Numbered from the stretch's first letter, positions 1 to 10,412 are shown. The stretch is 45,726 nt of DNA from Polyangiales bacterium (GCA_046351555.1 JAXLYI010000029.1:1-45726), one strand, 5' to 3'. Program-made: numbers and translations. The notes: generated by a model not told the origin, from the sequence alone.

Positions 1-811
1 CGAAGCTGTGGCGGAGCGTGTGGCAGCTCGCGCGCTTCGCGATGCGGGCGGCCTTCACCGCGTCGCAGACGGCCTTCTGCATCGCGCTCTCGTGCAGGTG
101 GTGGAGCGCGAGGCGATCGGTCGCCGGGTCGACGCACGGGCGCGACGCGGGGAAGACGTACTGCCACGCGAGGCTGGTGGCGGCGCCGGGCATCTTCGCG
201 CGCAGGGCGTAGGGCAGGTCGACCTCGCCGCGTCCGGCGGCGAGCTCGGCTTCGTGACGTCGGGCGACGACGTCGAGCTGGGCGCGGAGGGCTTCGCTGG
301 CGCGGTTCGGCAGGAGCGCGGGGCGGTCGCGCTCGCCCTTCGCCCGGCGAACGGTGATCTGGCGGCGGTCGAAATCGACGTCCTTCACGCGCAGGGAGAC
401 GGCTTCGAGGAGGCGCAGGCCCGCGCCGTAGAGCAGCTCGCCGAGGAGGCGGAAGGGCGGGTCGAGGTGATCGAGCAGGGCCGTCACCTCCTGGCGCGAG
501 AGCACCGCGGGGAGGTGCGCGGGGCGGCGGGCGCGTTCGAGGCCGTCGAGCGCCGGCACGTCGAGTTCGAGCACCCTGCGGTAGAGGAACACCAGCGCGC
601 AGAGCGCCTGGTTCTGCGTCGAGGCCGAGGTGCGGCGGCGGACGGCGAGGTCGTTGAGGAACGCGGTGATCTCGGGGGCGCCGAGGTCGCGCGGGTGACG
701 GCGGCCGTGGAAGGCGATGAAGGCGCGGGTCCACTGGACGTACGCCTCCTCCGTGCGCGCGGCGTAGTGCAGGCGGCGGAGGGTGGTGCGGAGGGCTTCG
801 ATCAGCGTCAT
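1..811 (-). CDS. intI: Integron integrase IntI, 5' portion. The start codon is the complement of 809-811; the C-terminus lies beyond the window start.
   Basis: The reverse-strand translation reads MTLIEALRTTLRRLHYAARTEEAYVQWTRAFIAFHGRRHPRDLGAPEITAFLNDLAVRRRTSASTQNQALCALVFLYRRVLELDVP...LLYGAGLRLLEAVSLRVKDVDFDRRQITVRRAKGERDRPALLPNR...GEVDLPYALRAKMPGAATSLAWQYVFPASRPCVDPATDRLALHHLHESAMQ...CHTLRHSF. It is collinear with IntI1, including the integron-specific extra domain (ALPxAL...WxWxxVFP) that Xer recombinases lack, and box II HxxR is present. The six-frame track only shows the antisense shadow ORF 8..1066(+). Confidence 0.93.
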   Translation of the reverse strand, partial: MTLIEALRTTLRRLHYAARTEEAYVQWTRAFIAFHGRRHPRDLGAPEITAFLNDLAVRRRTSASTQNQALCALVFLYRRVLELDVPALDGLERARRPAHLPAVLSRQEVTALLDHLDPPFRLLGELLYGAGLRLLEAVSLRVKDVDFDRRQITVRRAKGERDRPALLPNRASEALRAQLDVVARRHEAELAAGRGEVDLPYALRAKMPGAATSLAWQYVFPASRPCVDPATDRLALHHLHESAMQKAVCDAVKAARIAKRASCHTLRHSF

Positions 812-953
812 GAGGGGGCTCCAGGCGCCGCCGGGTGCGAGACGGCGCGCGGGGTTATCGACGCCGCGCAGGAAATGGTGCGTCGGGGGAGCCTCGGTAC
901 TGGACGGATGGCGAGGGGCGCAGGCGGGCGTAGGGAGATCAGGGCGGGGGCGG

Positions 954-1040
954 CCGGCGGCCTAACACGCGGGTTACCGGGTTATCGCGCCGGAGCCGGC
1001 GGCCTAACAGGCGTGTTACGGGAATACCGACGGGTTAGGC
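954..1040 (+). other. attI recombination site with two IntI-binding direct repeats and the R core GTTAGGC
   Basis: The direct repeats are CCGGCGGCCTAACAcGCGgGTTACcGGG (about 954-982) and CCGGCGGCCTAACAgGCGtGTTACgGG (about 996-1023). Each contains the inverted core GCCTAAC (960-966 and 1002-1008). The core GTTAGGC lies at 1034-1040, with a second GTTRRRY (GTTAGAC) at 1054-1060. The site sits between divergent intI and the cassette genes, as in class 1 to 3 integrons. Confidence 0.75.
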
Positions 1041-1120
1041 AGTCGAAGATGATGTTAGACAGGTGAACTAGATGACAAACTTGCGAGGCGTCGCGGACGT
1101 CGGAAGGGTGTCGACTCGGA

Positions 1121-2038
1121 ATGACTACAATCGCACAGCAATTCCGGAACTTTAAACAACGTCTCGGCAATGTGAACGCCCACATCTGCATGGTGGATGC
1201 TGTTGTCGCGAATGCCCTCGAAAGTGCACAAGATACGGATACTCCAGAACGGTATCTGGAAGAACTAGCAAAGAAGCAGCAGCACTATCTTGGCTTCAAA
1301 CAAATCCCAGAGTTGCGCAAGCCGCTGGGTTCTTTCGGCATTGTGTTCCAACATCAGGTGCTCGAAGGCTTTTTGCAGGACCTCGAAGAGTATCTACGGG
1401 GGAAACCTTCGTACAATGCTATGGATCCCAATGGCACTGATCCTCGCCCGAAGGGGGAGGACATGCTGCGGCGCTTGGTCCGAAAGCTAGTTCTCCTGGC
1501 CAACAAGCAAGAGCTACCATTAAGTTACAAAGACGAGAACGAGCGAGATGCAGCGCTGCGCGAGGAGATCTTTTGTAGTACCGTCGGCAACGTCGAGACT
1601 CACCTGATGGAATACTATCGATTGGTTCGGAATGCCGCGGTGCATGCTGATATCGATCGAATCGCCGAGAATTATTACAAAGCCCACTTTGCGAGTATGC
1701 AGTCAACGCGCAATCAAACCGAATCGACACTTGAGCAAGGAGAGCCTCAGCGATTCACGCCGGAGAAGTTGACTCGTCTCTACAAGGCTAAGCCTTCAAG
1801 TGTCAATGCCATTTCAATTGAAGATATGATCCTGTATTCGCGGGTCATGCAGAAAGTCACACGGGCACTTCTGGTGATGGCACGTCCCGACATCGAGACC
1901 GAGATACTTCCCGTTCTGAGGAAATCGTTTTCCCGCTTTGAGAGTGAAGAACGTCGCAGGAAGGCTATCGTTGGAGCGTTGTGCACAGACTATCTGCTTG
2001 ACGCAAATGTGGCAAAGGAATATGCTTCTCGTGGCTGA
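1121..2038 (+). CDS. Cassette-encoded hypothetical protein with a HEPN-like Rx4H motif; putative RNase or abortive-infection-type effector
   Basis: This is a 305-aa ORF with an ATG start and low GC. The motif ...ETHLMEYYRLVRNAAVHADIDR... carries R-N-x3-H, which is the canonical HEPN Rx4-6H active-site signature with a polar residue after R. I recognise no other family. Confidence 0.6.
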   Translation: MTTIAQQFRNFKQRLGNVNAHICMVDAVVANALESAQDTDTPERYLEELAKKQQHYLGFKQIPELRKPLGSFGIVFQHQVLEGFLQDLEEYLRGKPSYNAMDPNGTDPRPKGEDMLRRLVRKLVLLANKQELPLSYKDENERDAALREEIFCSTVGNVETHLMEYYRLVRNAAVHADIDRIAENYYKAHFASMQSTRNQTESTLEQGEPQRFTPEKLTRLYKAKPSSVNAISIEDMILYSRVMQKVTRALLVMARPDIETEILPVLRKSFSRFESEERRRKAIVGALCTDYLLDANVAKEYASRG

Positions 2039-2133
2039 CTAGCTTAGCGGTAGAGCGCTTTCGTCTCAAGCCCATCTCCATCGGCGGTGGGTTTGAGAGG
2101 AAAGAGGCAGTGGTTCGACTCCTCTGTCAGCCG
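2033..2133 (+). ncRNA. tRNA-like element: class-I tRNA scaffold with anticodon loop GUCUCA (CUC, Glu-type), discriminator G and a 30-nt insertion between positions 37 and 38
   Basis: The acceptor stem is a perfect 7 bp, GGCUGAC (2033-2039) with GUCAGCC (2126-2132). U8 and A9 are present. The D-arm is GCUU/AGCGGUA/GAGC with A14 and GG. The anticodon stem is CUUUC (2058-2062) with GAAAG (2100-2104), and the loop begins G-U33-C-U-C-A37. Positions 2069-2098 are then inserted and pair back onto the anticodon (UCUCAAGCCC with GGGUUUGAGA). The variable loop is AGGC. The T-arm is AGUGG/UUCGACU/CCUCU with G53-C61 and T54-psi-C-R-A58. No CCA is encoded. The element overlaps the ORF1 stop codon (TGA 2036-2038). 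Confidence 0.5.
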
Positions 2134-2172
2134 ATCATCTGTGAATTGCGTTTTGCAACACCGTTTGGGTAC

Positions 2173-2263
2173 GTCTAACAAGCCGATGGTGCCGACCGCC
2201 CCCTCCTCACTCACCCGCTACCCACCTGCCCCGCTGCGGCGGCACATCGGCAGGCCGTTGGGC
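2173..2263 (+). repeat. attC site of cassette 1 (91 bp; R'' GTCTAAC ... R' GTTGGGC)
   Basis: The site is GTCTAAC-aagccgatgGtgccgACcgcc-[32-nt variable centre]-gctgcggcggcacatcggcaggcc-GTTGGGC. The flanking arms are imperfect inverted repeats with unpaired G and AC, the extrahelical bases typical of attC. R'' fits RYYYAAC and R' fits GTTRRRY. The conserved arms reappear at 4933-5023. Confidence 0.72.
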
Positions 2264-2323
2264 AGCTTCGGAGTACGACGCTGCGAATGAGCAGCAGAAC
2301 CTTACAGAAAAGGCTAGGCCCAC

Positions 2324-3721
2324 GTGAAGACTGACGTAAGCAGCCAACTTGTCGTAAACATAGATCGCAAACGGTACACCGCACTTTCAGGTCTGTGGAA
2401 GAGCCCATATGCCTCTGTTATGTCAGAGGAAATAGATTGGTATTCGAATACTGACGAGTCGATCTTAGCCGTTGTGCTGCACGACTATACAGATAACGAT
2501 TACGCGGCTGTTGTGTCGATGCGCGATCTGAGCGGACGATTCAGGGCCGTTGATGTACAAGTTTCCTTCGTTACGGTTGCCGCCGCTGTCGAGTGGCTTA
2601 CAAGTACGATTTGCTCACGGTCGGAGTCCGGCGAAAAACACCATCGACAGGGGGACGAGGTGCCGTCGCTCAATCTTTTCGATCCAGTAGTCCCGCAAGA
2701 GCGACTGCATCCAGGTTTCGTGCACCTCGCCAACGACCTCGCATTTTTGCCGGGGCGATCAATCATTCGAGAATTGATGCCTCATTATCATGACATCGAC
2801 GGGAACTTTGTCAGTCAGTTCCAATCAAGCGGGTTTGACGCGAGAACATGGGAACTGTATCTGTTCACCTACTTCAAAGAGGAGGAGTTATTCCTCGATC
2901 GAACTCATCGCTCCCCGGACTTTATTGTCAGCAAGTTTGATCGCAGCGTTGCCGTTGAGGCCGTTATTGTAGGCCGCCAGCTTGACAACCCACCGAAACG
3001 AGGAATTGTTAAGGCTCCCAAGTCTGCAACTGAAATTCAAGAACTGCAAAAAGATCTCATGCCAATCCGATTTGGCAGTCCACTGAACTCGAAGCTTCGA
3101 AAGAAATATTGGAGATCTCCGCATGTTCGTGGTTTGCCGCTCATCTTTGCGATAGCTGACTTCCATGATGATCAGTCTATGCTGTGGTCGTCGACAGCGC
3201 TGGGTAATTACCTTTATGGTTACCGTCATGAGCATTATTATGACGAATCTGGAACACTTGTCGTCAAACCAATCAAAATCAATTCGCACAAATTCGGCGA
3301 CAAAAAGATTCCCTCTGGTTTTTTCTTCTTGCCTGGTGCGGAGAACGTCAGCGCGGTGCTTTTCTCTGCTTCCGGGACGATTTCAAAGTTTAATCGGCTC
3401 GGACGCCAAGCGGGTTTTGCTCACCCTGGAGTGAGAATGTTTCGCAGAGGAACTCTGCACGATCACGACCCGAACGCTTCAGTGCCGCACATCTTCAGTT
3501 ACGAAGTGGATGAAACGAGTGAGGAAACGTGGGGTGAGGGGCTTTCGATGTTTCATAACCCGAAAGCTAAGTTTCCAGTCCCGCGGGAGCTTTTTCCGAG
3601 CATCGCCCATCACTATTTCGAAGATGGCCACATCAGAAGTGTTCTGCCGGAGATCTTTGTATATTCGTCGACCACGATTCACATGATTGCTCGCGACGAC
3701 GGAGGGGAGGAAAATGCATAG
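2324..3721 (+). CDS. Cassette-encoded hypothetical protein (465 aa) with a possible PD-x(n)-E nuclease-like patch
   Basis: The ORF starts at a GTG and has low GC with no good RBS. The segment ...WELYLFTYFKEEELFLDRTHRSPDFIVSKFDRSVAVEAVIVG... resembles the E ... PD ... (D/E)x(K) core of restriction-endonuclease-fold enzymes, but the K is not evident. I recognise no other family. Confidence 0.55.
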   Translation: MKTDVSSQLVVNIDRKRYTALSGLWKSPYASVMSEEIDWYSNTDESILAVVLHDYTDNDYAAVVSMRDLSGRFRAVDVQVSFVTVAAAVEWLTSTICSRSESGEKHHRQGDEVPSLNLFDPVVPQERLHPGFVHLANDLAFLPGRSIIRELMPHYHDIDGNFVSQFQSSGFDARTWELYLFTYFKEEELFLDRTHRSPDFIVSKFDRSVAVEAVIVGRQLDNPPKRGIVKAPKSATEIQELQKDLMPIRFGSPLNSKLRKKYWRSPHVRGLPLIFAIADFHDDQSMLWSSTALGNYLYGYRHEHYYDESGTLVVKPIKINSHKFGDKKIPSGFFFLPGAENVSAVLFSASGTISKFNRLGRQAGFAHPGVRMFRRGTLHDHDPNASVPHIFSYEVDETSEETWGEGLSMFHNPKAKFPVPRELFPSIAHHYFEDGHIRSVLPEIFVYSSTTIHMIARDDGGEENA

Positions 3722-3783
3722 ACAGAGCGCTGCCGTCGGCGAAATTGATTTTCTTGATTCGCTGTTTGTGCTAGCTTTGCTGC

Positions 3784-3876
3784 GTGACCTAGCTGAATGT
3801 GCCTAACTCAGTTCAGCTTGGCGCCGCAGCAATGTGTGATGCGTTAGATCTGATCCGCACATGAATGCTAGGTCAC
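3784..3876. repeat. 93-bp imperfect palindrome in the ORF2-ORF3 intergenic region with embedded integron core-like motifs
   Basis: GTGACCTAGC (3784-3793) is the exact reverse complement of GCTAGGTCAC (3867-3876). The inner arms share ATGTGC/GCACAT. The centre is GGCGCC. GCCTAAC lies at 3801-3807 and GTTAGAT at 3843-3849. Confidence 0.5.
3801..3849 (+). repeat. Possible short or degenerate attC-like site (R'' GCCTAAC ... R' GTTAGAT)
   Basis: GCCTAAC fits RYYYAAC and GTTAGAT fits GTTRRRY. GCCTAAC also pairs almost perfectly with G+TTGGGC, which is the R' this cassette would carry when circular. However, the site is only 49 bp, its internal L arms are not complementary, and it is unlike the uniform 91-bp attC family. 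Confidence 0.3.
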
Positions 3877-3944
3877 ACTACCCCCTTCTTACATCACCGC
3901 CCCAACCGCCGCTCTCTAGCCGCGAAGCTTGAGTCAGGAGCACT

Positions 3945-4904
3945 GTGACTACCAAGCGACAAGAGGCTGTCGGTCTCAACCACGTTTCGCGTATTGTTCA
4001 AGTTTCGTGGTCAAGCGGATGGCAGGGAATTGACCCGCAGAACGATGACGCAGTTGATGGGGTCGTGTTCTTTCGTCAGCGAGATCGCGACACCGGGCAA
4101 ATTGCGTTTGTGCAGGTGAAGTCAGGACCGAGTTACTATCGCGAATGGAAGACGTCGCCTGATGTAGTTGGTGTGCAACTGGGCGAAGACTATATCAACA
4201 AACATCGTCCCCGCTGGAACTCACTGCCAGGGCCTGTTGTTTTGGTCTATGTTCTCGAGAGAGAAAAGAAGAAACCACTGTCATGGTGGGCGGATCTTCG
4301 ATGCGAGGAGTCGTACTCGCTCACGAACAAGCAGGTTGTCTTGCTTCAGAGGCACAACACGTTTGGTCCTCACTCGAAGGGGCATATCCGGCGACTAGCT
4401 AAAGCCGTTACGCTAGATTTGCCGACTATTGTCGCGCGGCGTCGAGATATCAACCTGAGTCCCCTTGGACACCAGTTCAAGTCCGCAATTCGGCAGGCTT
4501 ATGTTGATTGGGGGCATGCTGTAAATGCGGAGCGCGCTCACCCTACACTCGGAGTTGTGGAGGTATCGCGTGTTGGATGGCGCCACATAACTCGGCTTGG
4601 CCGCCGTCCAGAGCGTATTATTCATAGCTTGCATCTGCTTGGAATAGCTCGCCAGATGATCGTCCACGGGGGAAGCGTCAGTCCCATCGGACGAGCAAAG
4701 AGCCAGACGAGAGCGAACGGAGCACACGAGGTGCTGGACTACCTCGCACTTCGAGCCAATGTCGTATTTCCTCATCGAGGTCCGGCAATTGTGCAGGTCG
4801 TATTGCGCCGCAAGCGGATGATAGGCAAAAACGGAACGACGTCGCAACGATTGTGGTTTTACTCTGTGTACGAGTTGGGCCGTTCAACGCATAGATCGGC
4901 CTAA
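3945..4904 (+). CDS. Cassette-encoded protein with an N-terminal Mrr/Cap4-like PD-(D/E)xK nuclease domain (DUF4365/DUF4297-like) and an unknown C-terminal half
   Basis: The ORF starts at GTG 3945, preceded by AGGAG (3936-3940) at 4-nt spacing. The N-terminus ...GWQGIDPQNDDAVDGVVFFRQRDRDTGQIAFVQVKSG... has the D-x(n)-(Q/E)xK arrangement of the Mrr/Cap4 restriction-endonuclease fold. The protein is 319 aa and GC is about 52%. Confidence 0.6.
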   Translation: MTTKRQEAVGLNHVSRIVQVSWSSGWQGIDPQNDDAVDGVVFFRQRDRDTGQIAFVQVKSGPSYYREWKTSPDVVGVQLGEDYINKHRPRWNSLPGPVVLVYVLEREKKKPLSWWADLRCEESYSLTNKQVVLLQRHNTFGPHSKGHIRRLAKAVTLDLPTIVARRRDINLSPLGHQFKSAIRQAYVDWGHAVNAERAHPTLGVVEVSRVGWRHITRLGRRPERIIHSLHLLGIARQMIVHGGSVSPIGRAKSQTRANGAHEVLDYLALRANVVFPHRGPAIVQVVLRRKRMIGKNGTTSQRLWFYSVYELGRSTHRSA

Positions 4905-4932
4905 GGAAGGCTCAGGGTATCTTGACGCAACT

Positions 4933-5023
4933 GCCCAACAAGCCGATGGTGGCGACCGCCCCCACTGCTGCCGTCGAACAAGCACCTGGCCTACTGCGGC
5001 GCCACATCGGCCAGCCGTTCGAC
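4933..5023 (+). repeat. attC site (91 bp; R'' GCCCAAC ... GTTCGAC) closing the low-GC cassette block
   Basis: The site is GCCCAAC-aagccgatggtgGcgaccgcc-[variable centre]-tgcggcgCcacatcggcCagcc-GTTCGAC. Its arms are nearly identical to attC1 (2173-2263) and it has the same 91-bp length. The centre is variable, as in attC families of chromosomal integrons. Confidence 0.7.
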
Positions 5024-5037
5024 GAAGACATGACCCG

Positions 5038-5565
5038 ATGATCGACTCGCAGCAGGTCGCCCTCGAGGCGGCAACGCCGCGCGATGCCGCGCTGCTCTCG
5101 AACCTCCTGGAGCTGTACGCCTACGACCTCAGCGAGACCTTCGCGTTGGAGCTGGGGGCCGACGGGCGCTTCGGCTACGACAAGCTGCCGCTCTACTGGT
5201 CGGAGCCCGAGCGGCGGTTCCCCTTCCTCATTCGCTGGGGCGCTCGGGTCGTCGGCTTCGCCCTGGTCACGCGCGGCTCGCCGGCGTCGGACGATCCCGA
5301 CGACTTCGATGTCGCCGAGTTCTTCGTCGTTCGTCGGCACCGCCGCTCCGGTGTGGGCCGACGGGCGGCCTTCCTGCTCTGGGATCGCTTTGGCGTGCGT
5401 TGGGTCGTCCGCGTCTCCGAAGGGAACCGCGGCGGCCGCGCCTTCTGGGCGAGCGCCACCTCCGAGTACGCGGGCGGCGCGGTGGTCGAGACCACGCGTC
5501 CCGGCGGCCTGCACGCATGGCGCGTGTTCTCGTTCGACAGTCGCACTCGGAAGGTGGCCGTCTGA
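5038..5565 (+). CDS. GNAT-family N-acetyltransferase
   Basis: The 175-aa protein reads MIDSQQVALEAATPRDAALLSNLLELYAYDLSE...FPFLIRWGARVVGFALV...VAEFFVVRRHRRSGVGRRAAFLLWDRFGV, which carries the acetyl-CoA binding R/Q-x-x-G-x-G/A pattern. GC is high and host-like. It starts 15 bp after the last attC. Confidence 0.75.
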   Translation: MIDSQQVALEAATPRDAALLSNLLELYAYDLSETFALELGADGRFGYDKLPLYWSEPERRFPFLIRWGARVVGFALVTRGSPASDDPDDFDVAEFFVVRRHRRSGVGRRAAFLLWDRFGVRWVVRVSEGNRGGRAFWASATSEYAGGAVVETTRPGGLHAWRVFSFDSRTRKVAV

Positions 5566-5629
5566 CCGACCGGTGCCCACGCAGCCGCGCCGTGCGGCGC
5601 CTCGGGCGACCGTCGGCAGGTCGAAGCGC

Positions 5630-6067
5630 GTGACCCCTTCTCTTTCGGATCTGCTGACGCTGCCGACGCCCGACGGCTGGCGCCGGATCCCGGTTCCGTC
5701 GGGGTGGGGATTCGCGCCGACGGTCGACGTTGCCGCGTACGGCGAACACCACGAGGACCTCCCCCTCACCGTCCTCGTTGCGAGGCTCTCGACGGACCCG
5801 ACGGGTTCGCCCGCGCGCACCCTCTCGGACTTGATGGACCGTCGCGTTCGCCGCGGTGAACCCGCCTGGCGCTCGGACCACATCGCGGGCGTCCCCGTTG
5901 TCGCGTGCGCCTGGGCCGAGGACGGCGTGGAGCGCTTCACCTGGTTCGTGCCGTTCTCGTCTGGTGTGATCGTGGAGTTTCAAGCGGTTCGTTTGCGTTC
6001 ATCGACGTGCGGCTCGCCGTTGCAAGAGGCGGCTCGTCCGATCTTGGACGCGGTCGTCTGGAGGTAG
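5630..6067 (+). CDS. Hypothetical protein (about 145 aa)
   Basis: A GTG-initiated frame with a consistent GC3 bias (...DGWRRIPVPSGWGFAPTVDVAAYGEHHEDLPLTVLVARL...). The overlapping longer ORFs (5084..6067+, 5267..5983-) look like shadows. The start is uncertain. Confidence 0.4.
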   Translation: MTPSLSDLLTLPTPDGWRRIPVPSGWGFAPTVDVAAYGEHHEDLPLTVLVARLSTDPTGSPARTLSDLMDRRVRRGEPAWRSDHIAGVPVVACAWAEDGVERFTWFVPFSSGVIVEFQAVRLRSSTCGSPLQEAARPILDAVVWR

Positions 6068-6177
6068 CACCCGACGACTCACCGCCCGCCCCGACAGCCG
6101 CCGTCGTTCGCCTCATTCTGCTCGCCGCGTGTAGCTGCCACCCTCCCCCGCGAAGCCGCGTATCCTCCCGCCCCTCC

Positions 6178-6807
6178 ATGCACGACGACGCCCTGCGGCC
6201 CGTACTCTTCCTTCTCGCGCTCAGCGCCATCGCGTTCGGCATGCGGCGCGCGACCGGCCGCCTCGCGCCGCGCGTCGCCCTCCTGCCGATCCTCTTCCTG
6301 CTCACGCGCTGGCCGGTGATCGCCGCCTGGATCGTGGGCGCCGCGGGCATGTTCGCGCTGCTGGTCCACAGCATCCAGGCCAACGGGCACGACCCCTCCG
6401 CGCAGTGGCCGCTGATCGTCGGCCTGAGCGTCTTCTGCGGGCTGGGCGCGGGGGTCCCGCTGGTGGGCGTCCCCTTCTTCGTGATGCGGCTCTTCGCCGC
6501 CGTGCCCGAGCTCCCGCTCGAGCGCGGTGAGGCCGTCGCGCGCGAGTGGCCCGGCAACCACTTCCTCGACGGCGAGGGGCGCGGCGGCAAGATGCTCCTG
6601 ACCACCGAGCGCCTCGGCTTCTGCCCCCACCGCTTCAACGTGCAGCTCGCGACCTGGAGCGTGCGCCGCGCCGACATCACCGCCCTGAGCGTCGAGGGCG
6701 AGCGGCTCCTGCTCGTCACGCACGCGGGCGCGGCCGAGCCGGCGTGGTTCGCGGTGCCCGACCCGCGGCAGGTGGCGCGCGAGATCGACCCGACGCTCGC
6801 CGGGTGA
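6178..6807 (+). CDS. Membrane protein with a C-terminal bacterial PH-like (bPH/GRAM-like) domain
   Basis: An ATG lies at residue 92 of ORF 5905..6807. There are three or four hydrophobic helices (LFLLALSAIAFG, LLPILFLLTRWPVIAAWIVGAAGMFALLV, LIVGLSVFCGLGAG), followed by ...GEGRGGKMLLTTERLGFCPHRFNVQLATWSVRRADITALSVEG... Confidence 0.6.
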   Translation: MHDDALRPVLFLLALSAIAFGMRRATGRLAPRVALLPILFLLTRWPVIAAWIVGAAGMFALLVHSIQANGHDPSAQWPLIVGLSVFCGLGAGVPLVGVPFFVMRLFAAVPELPLERGEAVAREWPGNHFLDGEGRGGKMLLTTERLGFCPHRFNVQLATWSVRRADITALSVEGERLLLVTHAGAAEPAWFAVPDPRQVAREIDPTLAG

Positions 6808-6820
6808 CCCGCGCCGTCCG

Positions 6821-9445
6821 TCAGTGGAGCGCGGGCGGCGCGGCGCTGTCGCGCGGCGGGAGCGAGTGGCGCGCCGGCGGGTGCTCGCGCACGTAGCGAG
6901 TGGCCTTCTCCACGTCGAGCGGCGGCGCGATGGCGTAGCCCTGCGCCACGTCGCACCCGAGCGCGCGGAGCGTCATGAGCTGCGCGTCGTCCTCGACCCC
7001 CTCGGCCACCACGGTGAGCCGCAGCGCGCGGGCGAGCTCGATGATCGAGCGGACGAGCGCCGCGGCGGAGCGGTCGCCGGTGCGGAGGCCGTCGGTGAGC
7101 CCGCGGTCGATCTTCACCTCCTCGGCGGGGAACTGCCGGAGGTACGCGATGGAGGCGTTGCCCGCGCCGTAGTCGTCGATGGAGACGTGGACGCCGAGGG
7201 CGCGGATGCGCGCGAGGAGGCGGGCGCCGCGGTCGGGGTCGGTCATCACGGCCGTCTCGGTGAGCTCGACGACGAGGCGCGAGGGCGCGATGTTGTGCGC
7301 GCGGAGCATCGCGGCGACGTCGTCGACGAAGCCCGCCTCGTGGAGCTGCCGCGGCGAGACGTTGACCGCCATGCGGAGGCGCGAGGGGCCGTGGAGATCA
7401 TCCCAGCGGGCGAGCTGCGCGAGGGCGTGGTCGAGCACCCAGGCGCCGATGGGGACGATCTGCCCGGTCTCCTCGGCGAGCGGGATGAAGCGGCCGGGGG
7501 GGATGGCGCGGCCGTCGGGGCGGTTCCACCGGGCGAGGGCCTCGACGCCGACGAGGGCGCCGTCGGCGACGCGCACCTTGGGCTGGTACGCCAGCGAGAA
7601 CTCCCCGCGCGCGATCGCCTCGTCGATCTCCGCGCGGAGCTCGACCTTCCCGCGGATCGCGTCGCCCATCGCGCTCTCGAAGCGCACCGCGCGGCCGCGG
7701 CCCTGGCGCTTGGCCTCGTAGAGCGCGATGTCCGCGTCGCGCAGCGCGTCGTCGGCCGCGTCGCCCGGCAGCGCCCGCCGCACCCCGACGCTCGCCCCGA
7801 GCGTGAACGACATCGCGTGGACCGCCACCGGCTCGCGCAGCGCCTCCACCACCGCCTCGGCCACGCGCTCGCCCTCGCCCTCGCCGCGCGCCTCCACCAC
7901 CGCGACGAACTCGTCGCCCCCGAGGCGGCCGATCCAGCGGTCGTCGCGCTCGCCGAGGACGGCCTCCATGCGCCGGGCGACGGTGGCGAGCACCGCGTCG
8001 CCCGCGGCGTGGCCGAAGGAGTCGTTGACCTCCTTGAAGCCGTCGAGGTCGATGAGGAGCACCGCGAGGGCTCTCCCCTCGGCGAGCCACGCCGCGAGCC
8101 GCGCGCGGAGCGTGGCGCGGTTGGGCAGGCCCGTGAGCGGGTCGACCGTGGCGAGGCGGTGGAGGGCGTCGACGTCGTGCGCGTTGAGCACCAGGCCCGC
8201 GACGTCGGGGTCGTCGCAGAGGTCGGTGACGCGGAGGTGGAAGTGCCGCAGCGCGCCGTCGACGCGGAGGCGGAGGTCGACCTCGGCGCGGTGGTCGGCG
8301 GACGACTGGGCGGCGGCGAAGGCGCGGCGGAGCTCGGCGAGGTCCGCAGGGTGGCAGGCCCGTTCGAAGCCGTCGGCGCTGACGGCGAGGCCGAGGCGCG
8401 AGGCGGTGGCGGGGGCCATTTCGACGACGGTTCCTTCGGGGAGGACGATGGCGACGACGTCGAGGGCGCCGGCGGACATCGTGCCGAGCGTGCGGGCGTG
8501 GGAGAGGGCGGCGTCGCGGACGAGCGACACGCAGCGGGCGCCGAAGAGCAGGGTGAGGGCCGCGCTCGACGCCATGCTCACGTGCGGGTCGAGGGCGCCG
8601 AGGAAGCCCGCCACGCCGGGCGCCGCGGTGGCGAGGGCGAGCAGGGCGACGCGGGCCCCGTTGCTCCGCCGGGGCATGAGGTTGAGCCGGACGAGGTCGC
8701 CCATCGACGGGTGCCACACCGACACGGCCACCGAGGCGCACGCGACGATGAGCGTCGCGGCGGTGAGCGCGTCGGGCCCGCGCTGCGCGAGGCGCCCGGA
8801 GAGCGTCCCGAGGTCGGAGACGAAGGAGAAGGTGGCGAACGAGAGGAGCGCGTAGAGCGACACGGGGCGCCGGCGCGCCATGGTGACGAGGGAGAGGGTG
8901 ACGGTGAAGGTCACGAGGTCGCCGGTGGGGTACACCAGCAGCGCGAGGCGGACGTCGACGGGGAGGGCGCGCGCCACGCGGTCGAACACGACGGCCCAGA
9001 CGAGCGCGGCCCCCGCGACGCCGACGATGAGCGCGTCGATGAGGACGAAGCGCGCGAAGCGGCGGTTGTTGACGCGCCCGAACGTGAGGATGGAGTCGAC
9101 CGCCATCACGTAGGCGAGCGCGAAGGCGACGTCACCGAGGCCGACGTCGCGCCCGCCGATGGTGTTGCCGCTCTGGCGGAAGAAGCACGCGAGCCCCGCG
9201 ACGCTGAGCCCGAGCGCGACGAGGTAGCGCGAGAGGGCCGGGCGGAGCGGCGGGGCGCGGCGCCAGGCGACCGCCACGGCCACGGCGCTCCCCACGAAGC
9301 ACGCGGTGATGAGCGGGTCGCGGGCCGACTCGGCGAAGTACGCCGTGAGGGACATCGCGCCGGCCGCCCACGCGAACACGCGCCACGCTCGCGCACGCGG
9401 CGCGGCGCCCGCCTCCGGGGGCGCGTCGGGCGGTCGGCTCGGCAC
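6821..9445 (-). CDS. Membrane-anchored GGDEF-EAL protein (diguanylate cyclase/phosphodiesterase)
   Basis: The 874-aa protein has an N-terminal multi-TM region and a GGDEF domain (RLGGDEFVAV). Its EAL domain shows ELTE, DDYGAG and EGVED motifs. Confidence 0.9.
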   Translation of the reverse strand: MPSRPPDAPPEAGAAPRARAWRVFAWAAGAMSLTAYFAESARDPLITACFVGSAVAVAVAWRRAPPLRPALSRYLVALGLSVAGLACFFRQSGNTIGGRDVGLGDVAFALAYVMAVDSILTFGRVNNRRFARFVLIDALIVGVAGAALVWAVVFDRVARALPVDVRLALLVYPTGDLVTFTVTLSLVTMARRRPVSLYALLSFATFSFVSDLGTLSGRLAQRGPDALTAATLIVACASVAVSVWHPSMGDLVRLNLMPRRSNGARVALLALATAAPGVAGFLGALDPHVSMASSAALTLLFGARCVSLVRDAALSHARTLGTMSAGALDVVAIVLPEGTVVEMAPATASRLGLAVSADGFERACHPADLAELRRAFAAAQSSADHRAEVDLRLRVDGALRHFHLRVTDLCDDPDVAGLVLNAHDVDALHRLATVDPLTGLPNRATLRARLAAWLAEGRALAVLLIDLDGFKEVNDSFGHAAGDAVLATVARRMEAVLGERDDRWIGRLGGDEFVAVVEARGEGEGERVAEAVVEALREPVAVHAMSFTLGASVGVRRALPGDAADDALRDADIALYEAKRQGRGRAVRFESAMGDAIRGKVELRAEIDEAIARGEFSLAYQPKVRVADGALVGVEALARWNRPDGRAIPPGRFIPLAEETGQIVPIGAWVLDHALAQLARWDDLHGPSRLRMAVNVSPRQLHEAGFVDDVAAMLRAHNIAPSRLVVELTETAVMTDPDRGARLLARIRALGVHVSIDDYGAGNASIAYLRQFPAEEVKIDRGLTDGLRTGDRSAAALVRSIIELARALRLTVVAEGVEDDAQLMTLRALGCDVAQGYAIAPPLDVEKATRYVREHPPARHSLPPRDSAAPPALH

Positions 9446-9494
9446 ACCTTTGTAAACGGGCGGACGCGGCCCGAACGTGAGGGGACGCTGTTCG

Positions 9495-10412
9495 TTACCT
9501 GCGCAGGTCGAGGTCGCCCGCGGCGAGGAGCGCGGCCTCGCGGAGCACCCACCAGGTGGCGCGGCGGCGGTCGGTCCAGGCCGGAGACACCGCGGCGACC
9601 GTCACCGGGTCGAGGCCCGCGGCCCGCGCGAGGCGACGCGATCGCGCGAGGTGGAAGGTGTCGCTCACGATCGCCACGGGGCCGAGCGGGAGCCCGCGCG
9701 CGCGGAGCACCCGGGCGGCCTCGGTCATGTTCTCGCGGGTGGTGTGCGAGCGCTCTTCGCGGAGGGAGACGTCGTCGGGCAGGCCCATCGCGCGCGCCAC
9801 GGACGCCGCCGCGACGCTCTCCGCGGGCCCGTGCGTCCCGACGCCGCCCGTGAAGAGCACGCGCTCCGCGAGGCCGTCGCGGTAGAGCCGCACGCCGCGC
9901 TCGATGCGCGCGACGAACACCGGCGAGGGGGTCCCGTCGTCGCGCAGGCCGAACCCGAGAACCACCGCCGTCCCGACGCGCCGCGGGGGGTCGCCGCCCG
10001 CCTCCGCCACGCAGCGCACCACCTCGCCGACGAAGAGCGCGCCGACCAACGCCACGGACGTTGCGACCGCCCACGCGACGCGCCCACCCCGCGCAGGCCA
10101 GCGCGTCGCGCACCACGCGCCGAGGGCCACGGAGAGCGCGCGGGCGGCGAGCCAGGCGGGGCGCGTCCAGGGGACACCGAAGGGGATCCACGCGCCGAGC
10201 GACGCGTCGAGCGCGACGGCCGCGAGCGCGGAGAGCGCCACGACGCGACGAGATGCTTGGGTGAGCCGGACGAGCGACCACGCCGACAGCGCGCCGAGGA
10301 GGAAGAGCGAGGCGCGCGCGGCGGGCGGGAGCGCGACGGCCGCGAGCACGGCGCCGAAGGTCTGCGCGGCGGCGGCGCCGAGGAGCATTGCGGCGAGCGC
10401 GGGGCGCTTCAC
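9495..10412 (-). CDS. YdcF/ElyC (DUF218) family protein
   Basis: The C-terminal 305 aa of ORF 9495..11216 read ...LFTGGVGTHGPAESVAAASVARAMGLPDDVSLREERSHTTRENMTEAARVLRARGL...VSDTFHLARS, which are DUF218 signatures. A GTG start at 10412 is used; an ATG at 10388 is the alternative. There is an N-terminal TM segment. Confidence 0.75.
   Translation of the reverse strand: MKRPALAAMLLGAAAAQTFGAVLAAVALPPAARASLFLLGALSAWSLVRLTQASRRVVALSALAAVALDASLGAWIPFGVPWTRPAWLAARALSVALGAWCATRWPARGGRVAWAVATSVALVGALFVGEVVRCVAEAGGDPPRRVGTAVVLGFGLRDDGTPSPVFVARIERGVRLYRDGLAERVLFTGGVGTHGPAESVAAASVARAMGLPDDVSLREERSHTTRENMTEAARVLRARGLPLGPVAIVSDTFHLARSRRLARAAGLDPVTVAAVSPAWTDRRRATWWVLREAALLAAGDLDLRR

Follow-up and report, generated by a model that had tools for sequence, protein, structure and literature searches.

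Do two nuclease-type genes that lie in one integron cassette form a single immune system, or are they independent defence genes that have come to travel together? The question is raised by a 45,726-nt stretch of DNA from a Polyangiales bacterium (GCA_046351555.1 JAXLYI010000029.1:1-45726), here called the window at its full length, in which positions 2258-5017 form a cassette with two co-directional open reading frames (ORFs). The first (gene 1, 2324-3721, + strand) encodes a 465-aa protein that by its sequence is a full-length orthologue of the PD-(D/E)xK nuclease-type protein PD-T7-1, and the second (gene 2, 3945-4904, + strand) encodes a 319-aa protein with a DUF4365 (DREN) nuclease domain followed by a C-terminal domain (CTD). 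The reading that we favour, with a confidence that is about even, is that two nuclease-type defence genes, each able to act alone, have been packaged together in one mobile cassette. What is new about the locus is a lineage-specific, rearrangement-resistant linkage of PD-T7-1-superfamily genes to one family of DREN-CTD nucleases and to a structured leader.

Gene 1 belongs to the PD-T7-1 family

An earlier reading of this DNA, made without database searches and hereafter called the sequence-only reading, found no recognisable family for gene 1. That statement does not hold: the PADLOC run that it had proposed as a check returned PD-T7-1 (profile PDLC04073, E 1.4e-181, 602 bits), with residues 12-455 aligned to profile positions 3-448 of 452. 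Gene 1 has more than 2,373 homologues, from sources that include Klebsiella, Yersinia and Vreelandella, and the best 120 of them are full length, share 55-62% identity with it and represent many phyla. The sources often misname these homologues “glycosaminoglycan attachment protein”. In an alignment of 40 homologues, gene 1 keeps 91 of the 91 invariant columns. The “PD...VEAV” patch that had been likened to a restriction-endonuclease-fold core was a sound observation, as both P198-D199 and E212-A213 are invariant in this alignment. A PD-(D/E)xK-type core with conserved acidic residues is thus present in gene 1, and D157, E177, P198-D199, E212 and K257 make up a candidate catalytic set.

PD-T7-1 came out of a functional selection in E. 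coli and is regarded as a single-gene system. Cloned by itself it protects E. coli, and the protection is greater for T-even phages than for T7 (PMC9519451). Like PD-T7-5, it is classed as a single-gene PD-(D/E)xK nuclease system (PMC10952713; bioRxiv 2024.10.26.620412). Because gene 1 is, by sequence, PD-T7-1, the claim that the cassette encodes an undescribed system that cannot be assigned to a named one is half wrong: gene 1 is a member of a named system that has been tested experimentally (PMC9519451), while gene 2 is indeed uncharacterised.

Gene 2 pairs a DREN nuclease domain with a conserved C-terminal domain

Gene 2 starts with GTG, and its product comprises a DUF4365 domain at residues 7-152 and a CTD at approximately residues 156-319. 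The proposal that its N-terminus is DUF4365-like is supported by a match to PF14280 (E 1.6e-20, 74.1 bits against a cutoff of 24.3), in which residues 7-152 cover profile positions 1-139 of 139. The same profile matches 60 of 60 family members. These 60 full-length homologues are ~320-336 aa long and 30-67% identical; D34, D38 and K59 are invariant among them, and Q57 is kept in at least 90%. Gene 2 has the D...(Q/E)xK catalytic motif of its family (D34, D38, Q57-V-K59), carried on a fold of the restriction-endonuclease type. The DUF4365 nuclease that has been studied degrades DNA non-specifically once its short Argonaute finds a target, and Q62/K64 is its catalytic pair (PMC10810196). The QVK motif picked out by the sequence-only reading is well placed, because Q57 and K59 correspond to that pair. 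The nuclease fold that had been suggested was also recovered in the structural model of gene 2, whose top seven Foldseek matches in the PDB are DREN-APAZ chains of SPARDA (E 5e-9 to 1e-5), with Hjc and I-Ssp6803I as further structural neighbours. When the family profile was compared with PDB sequences, a DREN-APAZ protein (9jsb) was again the best match (E 0.03).

The CTD (160 aa) is modelled as helices at residues 209-241 followed by four long antiparallel strands at 244-310, and G211, H214 and S228 are invariant. It has no convincing structural or Pfam counterpart, and it may be a sensor or regulatory part of the protein. A word-indexed search with the CTD alone gave 2 matches and was uninformative; an exhaustive phmmer search, used instead, found 107 clusters among 1.84 billion representatives, nearly all of them with the same DUF4365-CTD architecture. 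A scan of metagenome contigs with a single gene 2-type protein found no further loci.

A few DUF4365-CTD variants carry an N-terminal CHAT protease, with the DUF4365 region degenerate, or an EAD11 adaptor domain (P0188, P0190 and P0203, 525-552 aa; P0198, 426 aa). CHAT and EAD11 domains are hallmarks of biological conflict systems, and the fusions suggest that the DUF4365-CTD module is used as an effector in larger systems of this kind. Among the 60 DUF4365-CTD members (alignment A1), 8 weakly match LPD3 (PF18798, large polyvalent-protein-associated domain; best E 3e-4) and 13 weakly match Mrr_cat.

Both genes lie in a single integron cassette

The description of positions 2258-5017 as an integron cassette, with exactly these boundaries, is confirmed by the features around it. 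An integron integrase gene (intI) lies at 2-811 on the − strand and has lost its C-terminal end at the left edge of the window. It matches NCBIfam TIGR02249 (E 1.3e-92, 310 bits against a cutoff of 265, profile positions 2-268 of 315), and its translation includes ALRAKMPGAATSLAWQYVFPA, which we take to be the position of the IntI-specific insertion. Next to it is an attI-like region (953-1040, +) made up of 35-nt direct repeats at 953-987 and 995-1029 and a core, GTTAGGC, at 1034-1040; from their position, the repeats would be integrase-binding sites.

An attC site is recognised by an R'' box of the form RYYYAAC, an R' box of the form GTTRRRY, an imperfect palindrome between them and a crossover at G|TT. 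The first site (~2164-2263) reads GTCTAAC...GTTGGGC and the terminal site (4924-5023, +), also recognised by its repeat family, reads GCCCAAC...GTTCGAC, with an R' box that is off consensus at one position. Both have complementary inner L boxes with one base unpaired, and the bottom strand of the terminal site folds into an imperfect hairpin. The two sites are 2760 nt apart. They had been called near-identical, which overstates their likeness: 64 of 91 bases (70%) are the same, and it is the R''/L'' and L'/R' ends alone that are 84-96% alike, as is normal for attC sites. Crossovers fall at G2257|T2258 and G5017|T5018, and the cassette boundaries are therefore exactly 2258 and 5017. An adjacent integrase gene and attC boxes with a crossover are both found for this unit. 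Taken together, intI, the attI-like region and the two attC sites identify 2258-5017 (+) as cassette 2, the final one, of a chromosomal integron with two cassettes: a single attC-bounded unit that holds both genes. The two ORFs and the low GC content are as the sequence-only reading gave them, the cassette having a GC fraction of 0.525 against 0.747 in the rest of the window. More broadly, a stretch of ~52% G+C spans positions 1000-5020, and the remainder of the window is ~75%. The NCBI record of the 465-aa protein comes from a Polyangiales metagenome-assembled genome (MAG).

The pair is conserved in one clade

Whether the two genes belong together depends on the side from which the pair is viewed. 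From the DUF4365 side, pairing is confined to the close clade around the 319-aa protein, and from the PD-T7-1 side it does not hold. Among 80 genomic PD-T7-1 loci, each from a different species, 79 have no DUF4365 partner within 6 kb; the sole locus with a DUF4365-CTD gene within that distance is L007, from another Polyangiales MAG. Eight distant DUF4365-CTD loci (L004-L006, L087-L090 and L092) have neither a PD-T7-1-like partner nor the structured element described below. Five of these eight unpaired loci adjoin defence or toxin-antitoxin genes, the neighbours being GmrSD/DUF3800, a Zeta toxin with RelA_SpoT, HipA, an MmeI-type restriction-modification gene and HD-CE/HATPase_c_3.

The close clade comprises five independent loci (the window, L007, L001/L002, L091 and L003), and a PD-T7-1-superfamily gene is directly adjacent to the DUF4365 gene in all five. 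L007 carries the same attC-bounded cassette (5855-8719), with 79% identity along its whole length, and the window's attC family recurs four times in its array. The cassette occupies a different array position there, which is indirect support for its excision and integration by IntI. In L001/L002 the DUF4365 protein is 67% identical to that of the window, and a 385-aa PD-T7-1-like gene overlaps its start by 11 nt; the two-gene cassette of L001 (~6690-9240) lies between attC-like sites of another integron. In L091 the DUF4365 protein is 66% identical, and the C-terminus of a PD-T7-1-like ORF overlaps its start by 8 nt. L003, from Archangium violaceum, is not an integron. Its DUF4365 protein is 46% identical, and two PD-T7-1-like paralogues are convergent on the DUF4365 gene. 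These tandem paralogues (7960-10402, −) are 353 and 468 aa long and 22% identical in the core, and the three-gene islet is flanked by a penicillin-binding-protein gene and an arginine decarboxylase gene. The clade thus shows three gene orders: co-directional with a spacer (the window and L007), overlapping by 8-11 nt (L001 and L091) and convergent (L003).

The PD-T7-1-like partners are not a set of orthologues. Those of the window and L007 fall in the canonical PD-T7-1 clade, with 63-65% core identity to proteins of other phyla, and those of L001 and L003 are not orthologous to them but form deep separate branches (27-40% identity). The N-terminal domain is missing from at least the L001 partner and the shorter L003 partner. 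D157, E177, P198-D199, E212-A213, K257 and H267 are kept in every PD-T7-1-like partner.

Comparison of the window with L007 gives a synonymous divergence (dS) of 0.46 for gene 1 and a saturated value for gene 2, with a ratio of nonsynonymous to synonymous divergence (dN/dS) well below 1 and a break at ~3882. Since the two genes differ in divergence and the break lies just past the leader, the pairing was either re-formed or kept through recombination. The DUF4365 gene of L007 (7642-8602) has a 1-nt and a 2-nt indel, and is spread over three reading frames by two frameshifts. Consequently, either gene 2 is dispensable there and has recently become a pseudogene, or the MAG sequence contains errors. 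Pseudogene decay was considered as the main cause of the low gene 2 identity between the two loci and was rejected, as the difference is mostly synonymous (proportion of synonymous differences, pS, 0.73; dN 0.21), a pattern indicating that the copies diverged long ago and under purifying selection.

A structured element precedes the DUF4365 unit

The 223-nt spacer between the genes contains a structured element of ~95 nt (3784-3880, +), a nested hairpin with helices P1-P4 and a folding z-score of -3.2 to -3.5. Copies are also present in L007, between the genes; in L001, 85 nt past an attC site and 5' of both genes; and in L003, upstream of the DUF4365 gene. The element therefore always stands 5' of the DUF4365-containing transcription unit, and it was found in 4/4 of the close-clade loci in which the region upstream of that unit is readable. 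For the four copies, RNAalifold gave 26 pairs, of which 7 show compensatory changes, with 97% of cells paired. The covariation score was reached by 0 of 500 shuffles, and slid registers collapse. With four sequences, this covariation is suggestive and not proof. There was no Rfam match for the element at E up to 1, an exact-pattern scan of metagenome contigs gave 0 matches, and a covariance model (R1) run over 13 loci with a DUF4365 gene recovered only the four training copies.

We regard the element as a probable 5' leader to the DUF4365 unit, one that may have a regulatory role. A short upstream ORF of 23 codons (MNARSH...; 3861-3932, +) begins within the element's 3' arm and stops 12 nt short of the GTG at 3945. 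Its ATG opens a short ORF in L007 as well, is the called start of the PD-T7-1-like ORF in L001 and is absent in L003. The strong ribosome-binding site that had been noted for gene 2 is present, with AGGAG at 3936-3940 placed 4 nt 5' of the GTG. That gene 2 is for this reason expressed independently, as was also stated, is not supported: the gene is preceded by the structured leader and the short upstream ORF, and no consensus match to a sigma-70 promoter was found within the spacer. A weak terminator-like hairpin (3728-3741, +), with a 5-bp stem and a T-rich tail, lies 7 nt past the PD-T7-1 stop codon and 5' of the structured element.

One system or two

In the favoured reading, that of two defence genes packaged together, PD-T7-1 would act as an autonomous anti-phage protein through its PD-(D/E)xK core. 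The DREN domain of gene 2 would, by analogy with SPARDA, degrade DNA non-specifically once switched on, with the CTD serving as the sensor or regulator of the nuclease domain, and the leader and short upstream ORF may limit or time the expression of a potentially toxic nuclease. The lineage would have combined both genes into a minimal defence cassette of two layers, which may act synergistically. Of this picture, the family memberships, the folds, the build of the cassette, the conserved adjacency and the covariation of the leader are shown; we infer defence activity in this host, what the CTD and the leader do, and any joint action of the two proteins. We take each protein to be able to act alone because 79 of the 80 PD-T7-1 loci and the eight distant DUF4365-CTD loci are unpaired. 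The validated single-gene status of PD-T7-1, the defence or toxin-antitoxin neighbours of five unpaired DUF4365-CTD loci and the CHAT and EAD11 fusions also favour this reading. Integrons are known to store defence cassettes, including the DUF4365-bearing single gene Divona (bioRxiv 2024.07.02.601686). Several observations weigh against this reading. PD-T7-1-superfamily genes adjoin the DUF4365 gene in every close-clade locus even though the partners are not orthologous, and such 5/5 pairing across three gene orders fits functional coupling better than chance co-packaging. The frameshifted gene 2 of L007 may be dispensable, the role given to the CTD is one that we purely infer, and we know of no established mechanism for PD-T7-1.

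The same adjacency is also an argument for an obligate single system, a serious rival that we rate as less likely than the favoured reading. Here both proteins and the leader would be required in this myxobacterial lineage, one protein sensing or processing nucleic acid and the other acting as the effector, with the leader as a cis-regulator or RNA cofactor. The pairing persists across three gene orders; the partners keep the PD-T7-1-fold core residues in spite of lying on deep separate branches; the pair was re-formed or kept through recombination, as indicated by the dS break between the window and L007; and the element is found solely where the pair is found. On the other hand, PD-T7-1 needs no other cloned gene to protect E. 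coli (PMC9519451), most loci on either side lack the partner, and the convergent arrangement of L003 rules out obligatory co-transcription. Interpretation is also confounded by the small number of loci, all five of which are probably from one phylum, such that shared descent of one island is not fully separable from selection, and the frameshifts in L007 count against an obligate pair as well. For the sequence-only proposal of an undescribed defence or toxin system, a defence role remains the best reading, and the idea of one two-gene system depends on adjacency conserved within a narrow clade, both proteins being found alone elsewhere as well. It seems to us improbable that the cassette stabilises the integron array as an addiction or toxin-immunity module. 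In that case one nuclease would be a toxin held in check by the second gene or by the leader RNA, and phage defence would be absent or secondary. In sedentary integrons, toxin-antitoxin cassettes that bring their own promoters are numerous (bioRxiv 2024.07.02.601686), DUF4365-CTD relatives adjoin Zeta and HipA toxin genes, and a structured RNA 5' of a nuclease gene is reminiscent of type III toxin-antitoxin systems. Both proteins, however, are commonly encoded alone without a cognate small partner, both are large nuclease-fold proteins instead of a toxin and a small antitoxin, the leader is without the tandem repeats of type III antitoxin RNAs, and E. coli tolerates PD-T7-1 expressed by itself (PMC9519451).

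The adjacency itself might also be an accident of array order, if the unit consisted of two single-gene cassettes with a decayed attC between them. This is suggested by the long imperfect hairpin in the spacer, which contains GCCTAAC and GTTAGAT, and by the abrupt shift in divergence from L007 immediately 3' of the hairpin, at the place expected for an attC crossover. We rejected a hidden attC at this position and give the idea hardly any credence. In the structure that covariation supports, the two motifs do not pair with one another, and neither is conserved: the AAC is lost in L007 and the GTT in L003, which is not an integron. In L001 the element stands 5' of both genes, 85 nt past a true attC, and the genes overlap in L001 and L091; moreover, the hairpin has no similarity to the attC family of the array. 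A bolder proposal than any of these, in our view unlikely, is that the PD-T7-1-type protein, the DREN-CTD nuclease and the 95-nt RNA make up one three-part immune module in a myxobacterial lineage. The RNA would then be more than a leader: it would serve the DREN-CTD nuclease as ligand, guide or switch, by analogy with the RNA-guided activation of DREN in SPARDA, and PD-T7-1 would carry out sensing or nucleic-acid processing. If true, this would give PD-T7-1 its first functional partner and the DREN nuclease a form of control that is independent of Argonaute.

The first cassette of the array

Cassette 1 (1035-2257, +) consists of a 305-aa ORF (1121-2038), a tRNA-like element (2033-2133) and the first attC site. 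The ORF occupies the first array position, nearest to intI and attI. Its product has no significant family in Pfam, PADLOC or NCBIfam; the best weak NCBIfam matches are to an N-glycosylase/DNA lyase (E 2.9e-4) and the anti-phage protein Ppl (E 0.08). The tRNA-like element (+) overlaps the stop codon of the ORF and lies just 5' of the attC site. It matches the Rfam tRNA family at 44.9 bits (gathering score 29; E 1.4e-8), with the acceptor, D and T arms intact and 37 nt in place of the 7-nt anticodon loop, which extend the anticodon stem as a long hairpin. ARAGORN called no tRNA across the whole window, and no Rfam tRNA-like counterpart of the element was found in the L001, L002, L003 and L007 loci.

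Significance and comparison with known systems

The locus is a modestly new variant of known defence genes, not an unknown system. PD-T7-1 is widespread and highly conserved and has no known mechanism; a lineage in which it and its distant paralogues invariably adjoin one particular DREN-type nuclease offers a concrete starting point for finding what it works with. The DUF4365-CTD family is a rare candidate defence effector, marked as a conflict-system module by its CHAT and EAD11 fusions and by its genomic locations, and the leader is a candidate cis-regulatory RNA whose covariation support is real and comes from a small sample. The cassette also extends the idea of integrons as defence stores from Vibrio to Myxococcota, with a multi-gene defence unit moving as one cassette.

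Among known systems, the type III toxin-antitoxin layout does not fit, as the structured element is present in a single copy without tandem repeats. SPARDA and TmuRE-Ago resemble the locus through gene 2, whose N-terminal domain is likewise DUF4365 and whose Q57/K59 pair corresponds to the catalytic Q62/K64 of TmuRE. By sequence the resemblance ends with that domain: no Pfam or PDB-profile match lies outside the DREN region, so that APAZ was not detected, and no Argonaute Pfam family occurs among the called neighbour genes of the loci or the ORFs at 1-9000 of the window. By structure, the CTD and APAZ compare with a TM-score of ~0.38, a value compatible with a partial likeness or with none. 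Divona, from the Vibrio cholerae superintegron, is similar in setting: it too combines a DUF4365 N-terminal nuclease with a small C-terminal domain in a chromosomal integron cassette; its defence activity depends on array position relative to the Pc promoter, and it is described as a single-gene system with no mention of a PD-T7-1 partner (bioRxiv 2024.07.02.601686). The C-terminus of Divona is described as crr6-like (PF08847), and the gene 2 family was compared with it by description only. PF08847 matched 0 of the 60 gene 2 family members at E up to 10, while Divona's own match may stem from a more sensitive method.

For gene 1, the two nearest systems are those of Vassallo et al. 2022 (Nat Microbiol). 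Residues 116-443 match PD-T7-5 (PADLOC PDLC04110, E 7.8e-48), whose 346-position profile lacks the N-terminal 120-aa domain, as do the shorter L001 and L003 partners. The window protein has the full domain, and both it and the partners score far better on PD-T7-1. The likeness to PD-T7-1 runs from end to end and includes the PD-(D/E)xK-type core. In E. coli, where the single gene suffices for protection (PMC9519451), PD-T7-1 lies within a prophage or defence island, whereas here it lies within a myxobacterial chromosomal integron cassette, together with a conserved downstream DUF4365 partner and a structured spacer that set this locus apart from 79 of the 80 genomic PD-T7-1 loci.

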